This document shows, one piece after another, positions 10,840 to 39,308 of a DNA stretch of 39,308 bases. Below the pieces are notes generated by a model. The model saw only the letters and a program-made list of their open reading frames with translations. It was not told the origin of the DNA and did not search any database. The stretch comes from a virus (lineage: Duplodnaviria > Heunggongvirae > Uroviricota > Caudoviricetes), in the IMG/VR virus record IMGVR_UViG_2703718775_000026, one strand, 5' to 3'. Position numbers and translations under genes: made by a program. How positions within the stretch are numbered: the first letter of the stretch is position 1; each line of letters begins with the position of its first letter.

Positions 10840-11265
10840 ATGGCAGAAACTCAGATGAGCATGTTTGGTGGTGACAGTGAGCAACTGCACGCCCTTATCG
10901 ACCGCCTTGATGACATCCCTGATGATGTTCTCAAAAAGAACTGGCCGCGGACCCTGTCAGAACTGGTTGAAGTCACCGGCGCAGAACTTCAGCGTCAGGG
11001 GATTGAGCCGGTACTGGCCGGTAAACTGGCACGCAAGGTGGCTGCGGCTCAGGCAGCCTATATGGGCGGACGGGGTTATTACCTGCCGGTCGGGGAATCT
11101 CTCTTTGCCGAGCTGCGAAACAATGAGATATTTTCGCGCTGGGACCGGGGCGAGAAAATTGAATCCCTTCGCCGCCATTACCGGATGTCAGAAACCCAGA
11201 TTTATACCGTCATACGTGAACAGCGCCGTCTGCATCTGGCAAGAACGCAACCGCCACTTTTCTGA
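10840..11265 (+). CDS. Mor/C-family transcriptional activator (single copy)
   Basis: 141 aa; C-terminal region GGRGYYLPVGESLF...IFSRWD...YRMSETQIYTVIREQRR aligns with Mu Mor GGGQVYIPRGQAL...IWNDF...YGVTFNTVYKAIRRMRR; lies between gemA and lys. Confidence 0.7.
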   Translation: MAETQMSMFGGDSEQLHALIDRLDDIPDDVLKKNWPRTLSELVEVTGAELQRQGIEPVLAGKLARKVAAAQAAYMGGRGYYLPVGESLFAELRNNEIFSRWDRGEKIESLRRHYRMSETQIYTVIREQRRLHLARTQPPLF

Positions 11266-11336
11266 TATTCCGCAAAGCCTGCCGCCTTTCCTTCACCGTT
11301 ACGCTGACTCAGAGAACATCATGAGACAGCGTAACA

Positions 11337-19062: not shown

Positions 19063-19238
19063 TTGTTTAAGGTATGCAAATGCATTACCTTACCCCCTTC
19101 AGGCGCGTGTCGTGATTTTCTAACCTGTATTTAACGGGCTTTAAAATCTGCGTGAAGCGCCTTTGTATTTTTCCCCTGGAAGCACTTCCTGAAATCCCGC
19201 AAAACCCGCCCTGAAAATTCCCGGCCTATGCTGCCGGA

Positions 19239-27492: not shown

Positions 27493-28828
27493 CGGTCGTG
27501 GTGCGTTCCGTGGTGTGCCGTTCCTCGTCTGGCGTGAGCAGCGCGAACGTGGCGGGCGAAACATTGTCCGTCGGGAATATCCGTTACGGGAAACCGGTGG
27601 TGCAGACGATCTGGGACCTAAACTGGCTGAATTTACGTTCAGTGTACTTGTGATGGGGGATGATGTTCAGACACAGCGAAATCGTCTGCGTGATGCCCTT
27701 CGTGCACCCGGTGCCGGGGAGCTGCTTCACCCGGATTACGGCACGTTAAATGTGCTGATAAACAGCTTTGAAAGTCGTTATAACGCTGCTGAACAGGGCG
27801 TGGTTGAGTTCACCATTAATGTCACGCCGGTAAGTGATGATACCGCACCTGCTGTCACACAGGACACGGCCGCCATTCTGGAGCAGAAGAGTACCACCGC
27901 GCTCGGGAAGGTTTTTGAAACCCTGGAAGCGGGCTGGACGGTGATTTCTGACGGAATGCACGATGTCCAGGCAATGACCGAAACCATCAGCGATAAGGTG
28001 TCCGCCCTGGAAAATGCCGTTTCCGGCATGGGGATTGTACAGGATATCAGTGCCTTTACTGCCACGTTCACGGCGCTGAAAGGGAATGCCACGGCATTAC
28101 TGACAGCACCTTCCCGCATGGCCTCATCTTTTGCGGGGCTTTTCAGTGCCCTGATCACCCTGCCATCGCTGCCGTCACTGTCTTCAGGAGGCCTGAATAC
28201 CCGGCCCGGTGGCAGTATCGGCCGGACGACATCCGCCGTCTCTCAGGGAATGCCGCAACTGTACAGGACATTATCTTCCCTGCGTTACGTGCTGGATGAG
28301 CAGGATAATCCGCAGACTCTCATCGGTCTGACACCGGCAGCACAAAAGAATATTCGTCTGATACGGGCGGTAATGCAGAGTGCTGCCGTGGTGGCCCAGG
28401 CACAGACCGTGGGAAAACTGCTGGATCAGGTTCTCAGTCAGGAAACCCTGCCGGACAGTGACGCAGCCCACCGTACCTGGCCTGTCTGGCTGGAAAGTTC
28501 AGTTGATCTTCAGCGCATTAACCGTGACTTAAGCGAAGCGCTCGAACGGCAGGTGATGACACTGTCCGGGCAGGGGTATACCGCCACGGCGCTGACGCTT
28601 CGTGATGCCAGACTGGCACTGACAGAGGATCTGAATACACGGGGAGTTCAGCTACCCGGTGCAACAGTAGTGACTGTACGTACCACCGAGCCTGCACTGG
28701 TGACCCTGTACCGTGCCACCGGGAACAGTACCGGCTGGCAACGTTTTGTGCGCCGTAACGGTATTGTTGATCCGCTGTTCATTCCCGGAGGCCATTCAGT
28801 GGAGGTGATTAGTGAGCAGCAGGGTTGA
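27479..28828 (+). CDS. Mu N-like (gp43, DNA circularization protein family) tail protein
   Basis: ATG at 27479 overlaps the tape-measure end; about 450 aa; position. Confidence 0.55.
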   Translation: MASGDGRGAFRGVPFLVWREQRERGGRNIVRREYPLRETGGADDLGPKLAEFTFSVLVMGDDVQTQRNRLRDALRAPGAGELLHPDYGTLNVLINSFESRYNAAEQGVVEFTINVTPVSDDTAPAVTQDTAAILEQKSTTALGKVFETLEAGWTVISDGMHDVQAMTETISDKVSALENAVSGMGIVQDISAFTATFTALKGNATALLTAPSRMASSFAGLFSALITLPSLPSLSSGGLNTRPGGSIGRTTSAVSQGMPQLYRTLSSLRYVLDEQDNPQTLIGLTPAAQKNIRLIRAVMQSAAVVAQAQTVGKLLDQVLSQETLPDSDAAHRTWPVWLESSVDLQRINRDLSEALERQVMTLSGQGYTATALTLRDARLALTEDLNTRGVQLPGATVVTVRTTEPALVTLYRATGNSTGWQRFVRRNGIVDPLFIPGGHSVEVISEQQG

Positions 28829-34574: not shown

Positions 34575-35135
34575 ATGCTGATTGGCTATATACGCGTATC
34601 AACAAATGACCAGAACACCGGTTTACAAAGAAATGCGCTGGAATGTGCAGGATGTGAGCAGATTTTTGAAGACAAAATGAGTGGTAAAACGACACAGCGG
34701 CCGGGACTGAAGCGGGCACTGAAGAAACTAAAACCCGGTGACACACTGATGGTCTGGAAACTGGACAGGCTGGGGCGCAGTATGCGCCACCTTGTTGCGC
34801 TGACAGATGAATTACAGCAACAGGGGATAAATTTTCGTAGTCTTACTGACAACATTGATACGTCAACCCCCATGGGGCGCTTCTTTTTTCACATAATGGG
34901 TGCGCTGGCAGAAATGGAGCGTGAATTAATTGTCGAACGGACACGGGCTGGTCTTGCAGCTGCCCGTGAAAGGGGACGAACCGGCGGCAGACCCCGTCGT
35001 CTCACGCAGGAACAATACGAGCAGGTCGGGCGTTTACTGGCCGGGGGTGTCAGTCGAAGACAGGTGGCACTTATTTTTGATATCGGCCTTTCAACCCTTT
35101 ATCGTTATTATCCTGCGAGCGTTTCGGAAAAATAA
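34575..35135 (+). CDS. gin: Gin/Pin/Hin-family serine DNA invertase
   Basis: 186 aa; MLIGYIRVSTNDQNTGLQRNALECAGCEQIFEDK... is nearly identical in pattern to Mu Gin; catalytic-Ser motif RVSTNDQ; C-terminal HTH. Confidence 0.9.
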   Translation: MLIGYIRVSTNDQNTGLQRNALECAGCEQIFEDKMSGKTTQRPGLKRALKKLKPGDTLMVWKLDRLGRSMRHLVALTDELQQQGINFRSLTDNIDTSTPMGRFFFHIMGALAEMERELIVERTRAGLAAARERGRTGGRPRRLTQEQYEQVGRLLAGGVSRRQVALIFDIGLSTLYRYYPASVSEK

Positions 35136-35225: not shown

Positions 35226-37283
35226 ATGAATATTATGACGTCCAAATGGGTTCAACTATCATCAATGCCCGGAAACTTTACCGTTAAAGTTTCCGGTGGT
35301 ACAGCGGCATTTCTTGAGGCTCCCTTTCCTCCTGCTGAAACGAAAGGAGGAATGACATTTGCTGACTGTCTCATCAGTTTTAATACACAGGATTGCCTGT
35401 GGGTAAGGCCAGTATCCGGTGATCCGAACGTGGAAATTACCGGAGCGGGTATTGGTGCTGTCATTCCGTTAAGTGCTGATGTTGCCGGTACTACTGAACC
35501 GTCAGACTGGGATAATGCAGAAACACATACCCGTCCGGCAGGAAATGAAACGGCTTCCAGCTCCCCTTCCTGGTATTACGTGATTGTTATAGCCGGCCAG
35601 TCCAATGCTTCATCTTATGGTGAAGGGTTGCCCCTTCCGGATTCTTATGATCGTCCTGATCCACGTATTATGCAGCTGGCACGCAGGAATACACAAACCC
35701 CCGGAGGTATTCCCTGCAAATACAATGAAATCATTCCAGCAGATCACTGCCTTCATGATGTTCAGAATATGAGTCTGCTGAACCATCCAAAAGCAGACCT
35801 GAAAAAAGGGCAGTATGGTTGTGTGGGGCAGGGACTTCATATTGCGAAAAAAGTATTACCGGTGATTCCTGCTGATGCCGGGATTTTACTGGTTCCCTGT
35901 GCCCGTGGCGGCTCTGCTTTTACAACCGGCGCAGTTGGCTCATTCGATCCGGCAAGTGGTGCAGCCGAGGCGTCACTACGCTGGGGAGTGGATACCCCAC
36001 TGTATCAGGATCTTGTCAGTCGAACTAAAGCGGCACTTGAGGCGAATCCAAAGAATGTGCTGTTATCTGTCGTATGGATTCAGGGGGAAGGAGACCTTAA
36101 AGCGACCCCGGCCCAGCATGGTGCCCAGTTTACTGCGATGGTGAAAAAATTCCGTGCGGATCTTGGTGCTTTCTCCGGTCAGTGTATTGGTGGTTCATCA
36201 GACAGTGTGCCGTGGTTATGTGGTGACACAACCTATGACTGGAAAGAGAAGAACCCAGCGGCATATGAAACCATTTATAGCGGATATAAAAACCGGGCTT
36301 CCGAGAACATTCACTTTGTTCCACTGATGCACGATGAGTTCGGTAATAAAACCGCGACCAACCTGCCGGAGCACGACCCGGATATCGCTTCTGCCGGGTA
36401 TTATGGTGCGGAATCACGGGGAGATGGCAACTGGACAACAGCATCCAGGGCAACCCATTTTAGCTCCTGGGCGCGCCGTTTTCTGGTCTCAGATCGTTTT
36501 GCATCAGCAATTCTTAAATATGCAGGTCTGACCTCTGCATTTATTGCCGGTGTGGCCCCTGATGGTGAAGCCCTGCCTCAGCCCGCGCCGGGTGGGAAAC
36601 CGGAAGCGCCGACAGGTAGTCAGCCAGGAGGCAGTGAGTCCCCCCATCCGACATCCCCGTCACTCCGTACGCTGCTTTCACTTAAAGCATCAGCAGGAGA
36701 AGCCCCGGCTCAGGGCTGGAAAATTACAGATGGTACAATCCAGCTGACGGACGAAGGTAAAGCGTTGACCGTATCCAAACAAAGCGGAAAAACCTGGGCG
36801 CTTACCCATGGAACTGATGCAGCCGGTGAACTTCTGAAGCATGGTGGTCAGTTGACCTGTAAATTCCGTCTGTCAGGTGAAGTAAAAGAAGGCCAGTTTG
36901 CTCTGGGTATTTACCTCCACACCGATACGGTCCCGGAAGGTGTAACCATGAGTGGTACAGGCACACCGTTCCTGATGGCGTATTATCTCCAGACAACAGG
37001 CGGCCAGTTAAATCTGATGCACCATAAAACAGGGGGGAATACGAAACTGGGATCATTTGGAGCCTACAATAACCAGTGGCATACACTTGTCCTGAAGTTT
37101 ACGGCGGGAAGTGCCCAGGTAACGCCTGTGCTGGATGGCACTCCGGGCCAGGCATTCCAGATGGTGAAAGATGCACTTTCCCCTGCCAAAGATACGCTGA
37201 CACTGACAGATGTCACCAAAGGGGCAACTTATGGCGTGTCTTTTGAGAGCGTTGTCCTTGAGGTTAATACCCCTGCGGCATAA
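35226..37283 (+). CDS. SGNH/GDSL-type esterase (sialate/carbohydrate O-acetylesterase-like) with C-terminal lectin-like domain; cargo protein
   Basis: 685 aa. GQSN nucleophile motif (VIVIAGQSNASSYGEG, nt about 35595-35606), WIQGEGD block and later His/Asp candidates; C-terminal ~200 aa with beta-rich, lectin-like composition. Architecture resembles prophage NanS-p-type esterases. Confidence 0.55.
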   Translation: MNIMTSKWVQLSSMPGNFTVKVSGGTAAFLEAPFPPAETKGGMTFADCLISFNTQDCLWVRPVSGDPNVEITGAGIGAVIPLSADVAGTTEPSDWDNAETHTRPAGNETASSSPSWYYVIVIAGQSNASSYGEGLPLPDSYDRPDPRIMQLARRNTQTPGGIPCKYNEIIPADHCLHDVQNMSLLNHPKADLKKGQYGCVGQGLHIAKKVLPVIPADAGILLVPCARGGSAFTTGAVGSFDPASGAAEASLRWGVDTPLYQDLVSRTKAALEANPKNVLLSVVWIQGEGDLKATPAQHGAQFTAMVKKFRADLGAFSGQCIGGSSDSVPWLCGDTTYDWKEKNPAAYETIYSGYKNRASENIHFVPLMHDEFGNKTATNLPEHDPDIASAGYYGAESRGDGNWTTASRATHFSSWARRFLVSDRFASAILKYAGLTSAFIAGVAPDGEALPQPAPGGKPEAPTGSQPGGSESPHPTSPSLRTLLSLKASAGEAPAQGWKITDGTIQLTDEGKALTVSKQSGKTWALTHGTDAAGELLKHGGQLTCKFRLSGEVKEGQFALGIYLHTDTVPEGVTMSGTGTPFLMAYYLQTTGGQLNLMHHKTGGNTKLGSFGAYNNQWHTLVLKFTAGSAQVTPVLDGTPGQAFQMVKDALSPAKDTLTLTDVTKGATYGVSFESVVLEVNTPAA

Positions 37284-37340
37284 TCGTGACGGCCGGGAAT
37301 TTATCCGGCTGTAACATCAGTTAATAAGAGTGAGGCTTAT

Positions 37341-37520
37341 ATGACATATATAAACGTCTGCCTGCTGTATTTCTGCACGGTGGTTTGTTGTCTGTTGCTT
37401 GTCAGCGGTGGTTATAAAATTATTCGCAATTATTTTCGAAATAAAATTGATGCAGCTGCCGAGGAAAAGATAAAAAGCGGTGCTGTAATGCCGCAGCCGA
37501 AAGACTCCGGTCAGATTTAA
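37341..37520 (+). CDS. Small hydrophobic membrane peptide (59 aa)
   Basis: ATG with GAGTGAGG upstream; MTYINVCLLYFCTVVCCLLLVSGGYKIIRNYFRNK... has an N-terminal TM helix and basic tail. Not in the ORF track (below the length cutoff). Confidence 0.4.
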   Translation: MTYINVCLLYFCTVVCCLLLVSGGYKIIRNYFRNKIDAAAEEKIKSGAVMPQPKDSGQI

Positions 37521-37555
37521 TTTTTTGTGAACCAGAAAAGGAAAGGAGAATATTC

Positions 37556-37801
37556 ATGCCAGAGATTAAAGGCACGGTTACTGAAGAGCTTGTCAAACAG
37601 GCACTTTATTCTGAAGAAGTGAACCGCGTGCTGAAGGCGCAGGTTCGCAAGGATTTTGAGGCACAAATCGACGCATATGTTGATGAAGTGCTGGCCCGAA
37701 TGGTTGGTCGTTCTCCGGCTGAAAACAGCACGGAAAATGAGCCTCAACCCGTAGAGCAACCAGAGCCGGTTCAGCCCGGAACTGACGGTACTATGATGTA
37801 A
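37556..37801 (+). CDS. Hypothetical acidic protein (81 aa)
   Basis: Strong RBS AAAGGAAAGGAGA; helical N-terminus and Pro/Glu-rich C-terminus. Confidence 0.5.
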   Translation: MPEIKGTVTEELVKQALYSEEVNRVLKAQVRKDFEAQIDAYVDEVLARMVGRSPAENSTENEPQPVEQPEPVQPGTDGTMM

Positions 37802-37810
37802 CAATACCGA

Positions 37811-37830
37811 CCGGCAGGTTTCCCTGCCGG
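37811..37830. terminator. Hairpin between convergent small genes (possible bidirectional terminator)
   Basis: CCGGCAGG-TTTC-CCTGCCGG with moderately T-rich flanks on both strands. Confidence 0.35.
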
Positions 37831-37839
37831 GTGAATTTG

Positions 37840-38010
37840 TTAATGCACGTTTTGTGTATTTTCCCTCCGGGGAGAACAGGCAGGACATATCAGCATCCTG
37901 AAACAGGAAGCATTTTTTGGTTTGTATGTCTTGCCATTTTGAGATCGAGAACGGCGATAGATGAGCTGTAAGGGAGTCTTACAGGCAGGGCAAACAGGCT
38001 CTTTATCCAT
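37840..38010 (-). CDS. Small zinc-ribbon protein (two CPAC motifs), 56 aa
   Basis: Minus-strand ATG (MDKEPVCPACKTPLQ...ICPACSPRR...) with AAGGAG 8 nt upstream; inside minus ORF 37840-38034. Confidence 0.45.
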   Translation of the reverse strand: MDKEPVCPACKTPLQLIYRRSRSQNGKTYKPKNASCFRMLICPACSPRRENTQNVH

Positions 38011-38118
38011 GATAAAGATCTCCTTTTTATGCATCTCTGCTTTACAGGAGACCGGGGAATATCATAGGATACGCCACGAGCTCGAAGTAAAGCATTGATG
38101 CAAGTTTTTACAGATTGA

Positions 38119-38156
38119 CCCAGCATAGTTCCAGCTATGCTGGGTTTCCCTTTTAT
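38119..38156 (+). terminator. Rho-independent terminator-like hairpin upstream of com-mom
   Basis: Perfect 10-bp stem CCCAGCATAG / CTATGCTGGG with 6-nt loop, followed by TTTCCCTTTTAT. Confidence 0.55.
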
Positions 38157-38189
38157 GTAGTATCCTGTTGATTTGAAACATACTACATA

Positions 38190-38416
38190 TACGCGCGATC
38201 CTACCTTCACTGTATAAAAAGTCAATAAAATGATCATTTTATGATCGTTTTCACCACCTAACTCTTCGTTTCTTTAAGTAAATAATCACCGCCCTGAATC
38301 ATTGTTGATGACTTTTAAATCTATTTGTTGTATCAATTAAACAAATCGAATCGATCGTTTTTGTCGATCGATTGCATGAGAAAGGCATCAACAACAAAGC
38401 AGGAGGTTATGCGGCC
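38190..38416 (+). promoter_or_regulatory. Putative mom-operon regulatory region with clustered Dam (GATC) sites
   Basis: Five GATC within about 175 bp (about 38197, 38232, 38243, 38353, 38366), arranged as two repeat pairs: TGATCATTTTATGATCGTTTT and ATCGATCGTTTTTGTCGATCGAT. Confidence 0.5.
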
Positions 38417-38617
38417 ATGTATCGAAACATACGGTGCCGACACTGCAATAAGCTACTGGCACGGGCCAGTTTCAGTTATCTGGAAGTAAAATGTCCGCGC
38501 TGTAAAACCCTCAATCAAATCACATCTCCGAGCGCCACAGAGCACCCCACATACACAAGGAAATCCTGTCGTGGGGAACAGAAAGCAAGTCACATCCCGT
38601 ATCATCAGCACGCCTGA
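38417..38617 (+). CDS. com: Com-like zinc-finger translational activator of mom
   Basis: ATG with AGCAGGAGG RBS; [35 protein letters not shown] resembles Mu Com (...IRCKNCNKLL...IEIRCPRCKR...); overlaps the mom start. Confidence 0.7.
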
Positions 38618-39308
38618 ACTTATTCGCTATAACGACAATATCGTTGGTTATGGCTCCCGTGAGTTGCGGGTTGAGACAATAAGTTGCTGGCTGGCCAGAC
38701 TGGTTATCGTCAATAAACATTACAGCCACCGTTTCGTAAATAATTCCTACCTTCATCTGGGTATATTTTCAGAACGGGAACTTGTTGGCGTAATGCAATG
38801 GGGTTACGCCCTTAACCCAAACAGTGGTGCACGCGTCGTAACGGGTACGCAGAACCGAGAATATATGGAGCTTAACCGGCTATGGATGCATGACTGTATG
38901 CCGAGAAACTCCGAATCAAGGGCAATCAGTTACGCGCTCAAGCTAATCAGGCAGCTTTATCCGCAGGTACAGTGGGTTCAGTCGTTTGCAGATGAGCGTT
39001 GTGGCTGTCTTGGTGTCGTGTATCAGGCAAGCAATTTTGATTATGTAGGCAGCCATGAATCAACATTCTATGAACTTGATGGCGAGTGGTATCACGAGAT
39101 TTGCAGGAGTGCCATTAAACGAGGCGGACAACGAGGTGAACATCTGAGGGCTAATATCGACAGAGCCAGTGTGCATAAGTTCCGACAGTTTCGTTACATC
39201 CGGTTTCTGAACAAGAGGGCCAGAAAACGCCTCAACACAAAGCTATTCAAAGTCCAGCCTTACCCAAAACCACAAACAGTTAAAACTGGTTTGAAAGAGA
39301 GTGAATGA
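38571..39308 (+). CDS. mom: Mom-like DNA modification protein (adenine modification, anti-restriction); start uncertain
   Basis: 245-aa ORF overlapping the com 3' end, stop at window end; position downstream of gin and com as in Mu. Confidence 0.65.

Follow-up and report, generated by a model that had tools for sequence, protein, structure and literature searches.

The stretch of DNA analysed here, hereafter the window, is the whole of IMG/VR virus record IMGVR_UViG_2703718775_000026 (39,308 nucleotides), and our subject is the region that precedes the com and mom genes at its right end. Mom protects against a wide range of restriction enzymes, is toxic if wrongly expressed, and is a classic case of regulation in several layers. 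The prophage is of the Mu type and close to Sp18 of O157 Sakai, and it was already stated that homologues of Mom and of its regulator lie at the corresponding position of Sp18 (PMC3299994). A search of the searchable literature library found no published dissection of the Sp18 com-mom control region. This prophage family was found in 233 of 5426 complete Escherichia coli genomes (~4%), O157:H7, O111 and O26 Shiga toxin-producing E. coli (STEC) included, and O157:H7 genomes hold the window region at ~98.5% identity. The evidence considered below is that of sequence anatomy, homology, conservation, consensus statistics and stem covariation.

An earlier note on this DNA had proposed a com-mom operon of a Mu-like prophage, and the Pfam and RefSeq identifications agree. 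The com gene (38417-38617, plus strand) codes for a 66-amino-acid zinc-ribbon translational activator (Pfam PF10122 Zn_ribbon_Com, 2e-12; a Com family protein in RefSeq), which can be aligned with Mu Com (window segment MKSIRCKNCNKLL) and is preceded by the Shine-Dalgarno sequence AGGAGG (38401-38406, plus strand), located 10 nt before the ATG at 38417 and invariant in the E. coli variant alignment. The mom gene (38571-39308, plus strand) starts with GTG and codes for a DNA adenine modification enzyme of 245 amino acids. Its identity is established by a match to Pfam PF25680 Mom (8.5e-77, residues 31-233); it has ~71% nucleotide identity to Mu and D108 mom by blastn against phages, 1537 homologues were found, and its stop codon is the end of the window. 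As had also been noted, com overlaps the start of mom, by 47 nt in the window and by 50 nt in Mu. We regard the region 38301-38620 as probably being the control region and the start of a late com-mom operon in an Sp18-like Mu-type E. coli prophage, with a part governed by OxyR and Dam that is proposed here.

The feature on which this reading turns is a pair of GATC sites close to com (38353-38356 and 38366-38369), 13 bp apart from start to start. The pair belongs to a direct repeat TCGATCG(T/A)TT at 38351 and 38364 with a 13 bp period, and it is at the same time an inverted repeat, AATCGATCG-N7-CGATCGATT, at 38349-38373. The arrangement GATC-N9-GATC has a single occurrence in the whole window (38353) and a single one in the complete Mu genome (35677), the latter being Mu GATC sites 2-3. 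Alignments were made of the region in its E. coli variants and of 59 distinct sequences from upstream of com, taken from genomes and IMG/VR. It was found that ~95 bp before com (38322-38417) are retained in relatives whose further upstream sequence differs entirely, for example those of the JE86 type, and that the proximal GATC pair lies inside the retained 95 bp and is invariant in all E. coli variants aligned. When 93 com-bearing loci with a Mom at least 66% identical were grouped into 21 sequence-distinct upstream classes, a 13-bp GATC pair no more than 150 nt from the com ATG was present in 13 classes, and either a 13-bp or an 18/19-bp pair in 16. A 13-bp GATC pair set in an OxyR-like site thus appears to be the conserved core of com-mom control across diverged cassettes.

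The resemblance to OxyR sites was assessed by scoring the Toledano consensus ATAGnTnnnAnCTAT-N7-ATAGnTnnnAnCTAT at every position, out of 20. An array of consensus matches extends over 38301-38377, with the best full sites at 38301-38337 (14/20) and 38332-38368 (13/20), and this region holds seven of the 12 best OxyR scores of the window. Six of its positions have 12/20 or more; when 2000 dinucleotide shuffles were made of the local 111 bp, the mean was 0.13 such positions and no shuffle reached six, and the maximum of 14/20 was equalled in only two of them. With the register fixed on the GATC pair, as in the site 38332-38368, the window reaches 13/20, which equals the 13/20 of the proven Mu site, and the proven agn43 site reaches 14/20. 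The half sites 38323-38337 and 38354-38368 are 31 bp apart, a distance that is also the first-to-second GATC spacing in loci L009, L116, L117, L127, L013 and L015, and a further partner half site is found at 38332-38346; the upstream half sites of the array are without GATC. Because of the consensus scores, the register shared with Mu and agn43 and the precedent of gtr, we read 38354-38368 (ATCGTTTTTGTCGAT), where a consensus match and the GATC pair coincide, as a putative Dam-sensitive OxyR half site. An imperfect 23-nt inverted repeat (38293-38315/38381-38403, 78% complementary) brackets the OxyR-like array; its core, TTGTTGATGACTTT / AAAGGCATCAACAA, pairs at 13 of 14 positions, and the repeat is allele-specific, being a better match in the window than in sister alleles.

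Dam methylation has been shown experimentally to block OxyR binding at Mu mom, agn43 and gtr. By analogy, host OxyR in its reduced form would sit on the half-site array 38301-38377, of which the promoter-proximal half site 38354-38368 carries the two GATCs 13 bp apart, and Dam methylation of both GATCs would block OxyR binding and relieve repression.

Comparison with Mu, for which sequence annotations and the footprint positions were used, gives a mixed picture of what has been kept. In both phages com overlaps mom, the mom GUG lies in a CCCAC/GUGGG stem, and a CC-N3-GAG Com motif stands directly 5' of that stem. Both have a GATC pair 13 bp apart with CGATCG/GATCGATT flanks and with the OxyR register and score of Mu sites 2-3, as well as a ATCAATTAAA element upstream, a short com leader and the operon at the right end of a Mu-type genome. 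Around the GATC pair Mu reads aATCAATTAAATCGATCGgtaatacaGATCGATTa and the window tATCAATTAAAcaaatcgaATCGATCGtttttgtcGATCGATTg. By blastn against phages, no similarity to Mu at the nucleotide level was detected before about codon 24 of mom; the homology of the GATC pair rests on its spacing, its flanks and its consensus register.

The first GATC of Mu, in contrast, has no counterpart in the window, and ~27 bp are gone that in Mu comprise the C box (ATAACCACAC), the -35 and the T6 spacer; Mu reads GATCGATT[ATGCCCCAATAACCACACTCAACCC]ATGATGTTTTTTAAGATAG where the sister alleles of the window read GATCGATT[..]GAGAAAGATATCA. The distance from the last GATC to the com ATG is accordingly 51 nt in the window and 78 nt in Mu. 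Two types of cassette can be told apart in this respect. In the long type (Mu, L011, L012, L024, L118, L127, L164) 66-83 nt separate the last GATC from the com ATG, with a C box, ATAACC(C/A)C, 12-16 nt after that GATC, whereas in the short type (the window, L009, L115, L116, L117) the separation is 51-54 nt and there is no C box. The earlier note had supposed that the methylation and OxyR features of Mu are conserved; the proximal two GATCs match Mu sites 2-3 in spacing, flanks and OxyR register, but the Mu control architecture as a whole is not conserved, with the first GATC and the C-activator box missing and the distance to com shortened.

The candidate -10 region of the com-mom promoter, placed by comparison only, lies at 38381-38391 on the plus strand. 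Judged against the equivalents in L008, L003 and L004, it is where the 95 bp, invariant elsewhere, vary most: the window, Z852 and SCU171 have AAAGGCATCAA, and the FORC029, M18 and JE86 types have AAAGATATCAT or AAAGATATCAA, which resemble Mu TAAGAT. The FORC029 and M18 alleles offer TTGTCG-19-TATCAT, with a position weight matrix (PWM) score of 9.9, and also AAAGAT, which again resembles Mu TAAGAT, and loci L115, L116, L117 and L009 have TATACT, TATAGT or TAGATT 11-13 nt past the last GATC. On the strength of these -10-like hexamers in sister and other short-type cassettes, we infer that com-mom transcription starts at about 38394-38398, ~20-25 nt before the com ATG as in Mu, and the transcript would then have a leader of ~20-25 nt. 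With such a start the GATC pair stands at about -41/-45 and -28/-32. Since no more than 51 nt, with no C box among them, lie between the last GATC and the com ATG, the OxyR site would most likely overlap the -35 and the spacer of the com promoter.

In its proposed layout the region is closer to agn43 and gtr, which like opvAB are OxyR/Dam epigenetic switches, than to Mu. The window 23-mer ATCGATCGTTTTTGTCGATCGAT equals agn43 ATCGATCGTTTATATCGATCGAT at 19 of 23 positions with the same 13-bp spacing, and the OxyR site of the window would, like that of agn43, be on or beside the core promoter and not far upstream; agn43 differs in having three GATCs (19 + 13 spacing), all downstream of the start, where the window has two. 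In P22 gtr, GATC pairs exactly 13 bp apart lie in single OxyR half sites, the promoter-proximal pair at -46/-33 (GATC4 at -33) overlaps the promoter, methylation abolishes OxyR binding, and further half sites are found upstream (PMC2909390). Like gtr, the window has a GATC pair within one putative OxyR half site, which would stand at the comparable positions given above. Unlike it, the window has upstream half sites without GATC, while gtr has two GATC pairs in alternative half sites, an arrangement that underlies bistability. Phase variation is not known for mom (PMC2909390). The window would thus represent a compact variant of the Mu scheme with two GATCs and no recognisable activator box.

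The translational part of the control appears to be intact. The mom translational control element (38534-38576, plus strand) was delimited by sequence and predicted fold, and consists of a Com-target motif GCC-ACA-GAGC (38534-38543; GCC-UGC-GAGC in Mu), a 5' stem arm CCCCAC (38545-38550), the mom Shine-Dalgarno sequence AAGGAA (38557-38562) and a 3' arm GUGGGG (38571-38576), which holds the mom GUG start and pairs with the 5' arm in the predicted fold; the equivalent arms in Mu are GCCUGCGAGCAUCCCAC...GUGGGA. Com is known to bind a CC(N)2-3GAG motif in a hairpin beside the translation inhibition structure, the stem of which includes the mom GUG (PMC6483171). The outer pair of the stem covaries: of 35 distinct cassettes, 19 have U-A, 15 C-G and one U-G, and none has a mispair. 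The middle three bases of the Com motif vary freely. Com translational control had been expected to be conserved, and the Com target motif, the stem over the mom GUG and its covariation uphold that expectation, with both the predicted Com target and the GUG-sequestering stem maintained. Com would bind GCC-ACA-GAGC at 38534-38543, upon which the CCCCAC/GUGGGG stem that hides the GUG at 38571 would open.

Late expression in Mu-type phages raises the matter of the activator. The phage late activator gene is located at 10840-11265, its product is 39% identical to Mu C, and a search for Mor/C-family genes found only this one. Its putative box, CCGCAAARCCYGCC-N16-TAYGCT, differs from the Mu box CCATAACCCCGCAC; clear copies lie at 11270-11283, before the endolysin gene, and at 19197-19210, before the protease/scaffold region, and a weak one at 28439-28452 inside an N-like gene, which is where Mu has its P promoter. 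Upstream of com a Mu-type ATAACC(C/A)C box was not found. A partial activator-box match, CCGCCCTGAA at 38290, was considered and set aside, as it is not kept in JE86-type relatives. A sigma-70 PWM scan was likewise of no help in placing the com promoter, for the same scan also misses the real Mu Pmom and is uninformative for activator-dependent promoters.

Several observations weigh against the proposed reading of the control region. Conservation within E. coli is uninformative, the whole cassette being 96-100% identical. The consensus scoring is crude and was applied to a region that is AT-rich with periodic ATC/GAT elements, and only two of Mu's three GATCs remain. The window allele of the promoter is poor by PWM, with the hexamers AAAGGC and CATCAA at the expected place, and the top sigma-70 match of the plus strand, ATGACT-17-TATCAA at 38308-38336, has a score of 6.1, such as is reached once per ~170 nt. 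No plus-strand match to the box CCGCAAARCCYGCC within 3 mismatches was found upstream of com, and with no late-activator box our reading does not explain how confinement to the late lytic phase arises.

The poor promoter allele could be taken to mean that the GATC pair is a remnant of an ancestral Mu-type operator, that the promoter has decayed (AAGATATCA to AAGGCATCA) and that the region is no longer regulatory. The window allele is indeed without both -10 candidates of its sister alleles, and prophages of this family are often partly defective (PMC2669165). We nonetheless hold such decay to be very unlikely: no damage is seen in com, mom, the Shine-Dalgarno sequence, the Com motif or the stem that covers the mom GUG, many genomes share this allele, and sigma-70 scoring misses the real Mu Pmom as well, so that little can be read from a poor score.

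A second possibility is suggested by the match at 38308-38336, which might itself be the promoter, as in agn43, with a start at ~38343 and OxyR acting as a roadblock in the leader, or with the 9-bp inverted repeat acting as an RNA hairpin. This match is the best of the plus-strand sigma-70 type in the region (6.1, or 6.8 as ATGACA in the JE86 type) and both of its hexamers are conserved across variants; the agn43 GATCs are downstream of the start, with the isrC/flu 5' end at the first GATC; and the leader would fold into a 9-bp stem. The promoter score is commonplace, however, the leader fold has a z-score of only -1.5, and loci L115, L116, L117 and L009 are without an equivalent upstream promoter and have a good -10 just past the last GATC instead. 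We therefore judge an upstream promoter of the agn43 kind to be unlikely, and retain the reading in which the OxyR half site lies on the presumed core promoter.

The proximal pair is not the only place upstream of com where GATC is frequent. The earlier note had counted five GATC sites within about 175 bp, arranged as two repeat pairs where one to two sites would be expected, and the count is correct: GATC occurs at 38197, 38232, 38243, 38353 and 38366, five sites in 173 bp that are the densest GATC cluster of the window, with direct repeats of 13 and 11 bp period, the second being ATGATC(A/G)TTTT at 38230 and 38241. From composition, 1.3 sites are expected in the 382-bp com-upstream intergenic region, and the Poisson probability of five or more is ~0.012. 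When 130 GATCs were placed at random over 39 kb, though, some 176-bp stretch with at least five was obtained in 23% of trials, and with a window-wide scan statistic of P = 0.23 the five sites were rejected as one significant cluster. The cluster as a whole is only weakly above chance, and with so weak a scan statistic the case must rest on comparison with relatives and not on the GATC count.

That comparison separates the distal trio (38197, 38232 and 38243; 38197-38246) from the proximal pair. The trio lies in an exchangeable block outside the conserved com control module. It is missing from the JE86-type relatives, which have the same com-proximal region; two of its three sites are retained in M18, and 38197 is lost in L095. 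GATC 38232 is inside a 14-bp palindrome, AAAATGATCATTTT. The trio has an OxyR-consensus score of 10/20, a spacing of 11 bp and not 13 bp, and a distance of 174-220 nt from com, compared with 78-109 nt for the Mu trio. We conclude from these sequence comparisons that the five GATCs are most simply seen as two unrelated groups, and that the Mu-like Dam/OxyR element would be the proximal pair only; the distal three are not homologous to those of Mu and, contrary to what had been supposed, do not belong to one Mu-like cluster.

The distal trio shares its block, 38035-38320, with a hairpin on the plus strand, and this segment appears to be a separate exchangeable unit. The hairpin (38117-38154) has core arms at 38119-38128/38135-38144 and a 6-nt loop, with 10 perfect pairs (13 with the flanking ones) followed by TTTCCCTTTT, so that the perfect 10-bp hairpin with a T-tract reported previously is indeed there; its folding energy is -26.2 kcal/mol (z = -3.8). 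It exists in three sequence versions, each with a 10-11 bp stem and with changes on both sides: the arms are CCCAGCATAG/CTATGCTGGG in the window and GGTCCAGATAG/CTATCTGGACC in Z852, and SCU171 is as Z852 plus one bulge. The versions are shared between Z852 and L006 and between SCU171 and L007, and the hairpin is degenerate in M18. The compensatory changes on both sides of the stem argue that the hairpin is selected. An ~80-bp unit around it (38090-38165; AAGCATTGATGC...CCCAGnATAG-loop-CTATnCTGGG...TTTATGTAGT) is tandem-duplicated in three relatives (L093 940-1100, L114 939-1100, L166 940-1100), the upstream copy having a stem mismatch. The unit is restricted to these Mu-like prophages, and that it might be a dispersed repeat was rejected, as 214 E. 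coli genomes have a median of one copy with the same distribution as the prophage.

The earlier note had taken all five GATCs as one Mu-style Dam/OxyR cluster and the hairpin as a terminator that insulates the mom promoter from upstream transcription. Apart from the density of the five sites, this is favoured by the T-tract that follows the hairpin on the plus strand and by FORC029-type relatives in which a plus-strand 78-amino-acid open reading frame (ORF) stands before the same hairpin. A stem-loop and a U-tract are thus present, but no co-oriented gene stands before the hairpin in the window: the neighbouring ORF (37840-38034) runs on the minus strand, and the closest plus-strand gene has its end 318 nt upstream, at 37801. 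Moreover, the T-tract, which exists only on the plus-strand side, is good only in the window version and weaker in Z852 and SCU171. Together with the loss of distal GATCs from relatives and their deviant spacing, score and position, this makes a single cluster with an insulating terminator distinctly unlikely. A transcript of ~75 nt could arise from a weak promoter-like site on the plus strand at 38041-38070. As a part on its own, the hairpin may plausibly be a block to rightward read-through into the com promoter, and a role in the structured 5' leader of a leftward transcript is equally possible.

Such a transcript could come from a leftward sigma-70-like promoter on the minus strand, TTGACT (38225-38220) and TAGGAT (38203-38198) with a 16-nt spacer. 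Its PWM score of 12.0 makes it the strongest sigma-70-like site of the intergenic region, and only 57 of 33675 window positions score 8 or more. GATC 38197 overlaps the end of the leftward -10, and GATCs 38232 and 38243 are just upstream of the -35. A second perfect 10-bp inverted repeat (38154-38163/38180-38189, minus strand) lies at the predicted 5' end of the leftward transcript, where it would fold into a hairpin; it is conserved in close relatives and partly deleted in M18. M18 keeps TTGACT and a TACGAT -10. Because the window and M18 share the distal block though their left-hand genes differ (an orphan Zn-ribbon ORF in the one and a 175-amino-acid protein in the other), the block looks like a leftward expression cassette for variable cargo, in which the promoter and repeat would have the roles suggested by their positions.

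It could be further supposed that the distal trio confers Dam-sensitive control on this leftward promoter and its minus-strand cargo gene, which would be compatible with the reading proposed for the proximal pair. The strength of the promoter, the GATC overlapping its -10 and the retention in M18 of the promoter and two GATCs in front of a different gene speak for such control. On the other hand, three GATCs in ~50 bp of AT-rich DNA are only mildly unusual, the distal sites are not conserved beyond the close clade, and the minus-strand ORF, all of whose homologues are near-identical, may not be a gene at all. We consider Dam control of the leftward promoter a minor possibility, and a doubtful one.

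Returning to the proximal pair and the OxyR half site proposed there, the conserved pair and the compact architecture without a recognisable activator box together offer a concrete case of the Mu regulatory scheme rewired, and they may be of use in reading unmethylated GATC sites of STEC methylomes. For the rest, most of what is found here repeats what is known of Mu, in a close relative. It can be speculated, although we think it improbable, that the short-type cassettes have lost the late-activator box, that their OxyR/Dam operator lies right on the core promoter as in gtr and agn43, and that Mom is governed there mainly by an OxyR/Dam epigenetic switch with methylation-insensitive upstream half sites (38301-38337), OxyR being a repressor at the GATC half site and perhaps an activator at the upstream ones. 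If this were true, Mom modification in lysogens could be heterogeneous or phase-variable, and need not be strictly a matter of late lytic expression.

The surroundings of the operon also depart from Mu. In the RefSeq annotation of one copy the gene order is tail genes, recombinase, DUF6645, DUF1378, DUF826, a minus-strand 'frameshifted hypothetical protein', Com-family and Mom-family, and host genes begin ~130 bp past the Mom-family gene. The recombinase is gin-like (34575-35135, by RefSeq annotation and Pfam scan). In Mu, gin ends 94 bp before com, while in the window the gin-like gene is 3.2 kb off, and between it and com are found the DUF6645/SASA esterase gene, DUF1378, DUF826 and a minus-strand ORF. 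The earlier note had spoken of an upstream context replaced by cargo, and gin is indeed displaced, with cargo genes between it and com. Pfam matches confirm DUF826, DUF1378 and the SASA-esterase/DUF6645 protein, the last of which (35226-37283) has 685 amino acids with a sialate O-acetylesterase-like (SASA) domain and a DUF6645 domain. The SASA/DUF6645, DUF1378 and DUF826 genes form an insert between the gin-like invertase and com, and Mu has nothing there.

Between DUF826 and 38035 is a slot whose small genes change from one relative to another. In the window it is occupied by the orphan Zn-ribbon ORF (CPAC...CPAC; 37840-38034, minus strand), for which only near-identical homologues were found. 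In the relatives (L003 1938-2465, L004 2046-2306 and L008 1072-1308) its place is taken by a 175-amino-acid Zn-ribbon/transmembrane protein in M18, by an 86-amino-acid minus-strand ORF in JE86 and by the 78-amino-acid plus-strand ORF in FORC029, and none of the small genes of the slot had a Pfam or NCBIfam family match. The minus-strand 'frameshifted hypothetical protein' of RefSeq (37840-38302) is probably an artefact of annotation: in most genomes it carries a frameshift or a truncation, it matches no family, and it covers the com-upstream intergenic region with the hairpin of compensatory changes, the promoters and the unit that is duplicated in some relatives. A scan of 37300-38700 against Rfam gave no credible family, and a tRNA search found none.

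Outside the com-bearing loci, mom homologues without a com ORF and without an upstream GATC cluster were seen in L018, L020-L023 and L061 (Yersinia, Serratia and a Sphingomonas record). In these loci a conserved GC-rich structured segment (…GATGGGCGCCCCGGAAAGTTGCCGCTCTCCGGGGC…) precedes mom, which suggests that the control of mom differs in these lineages.

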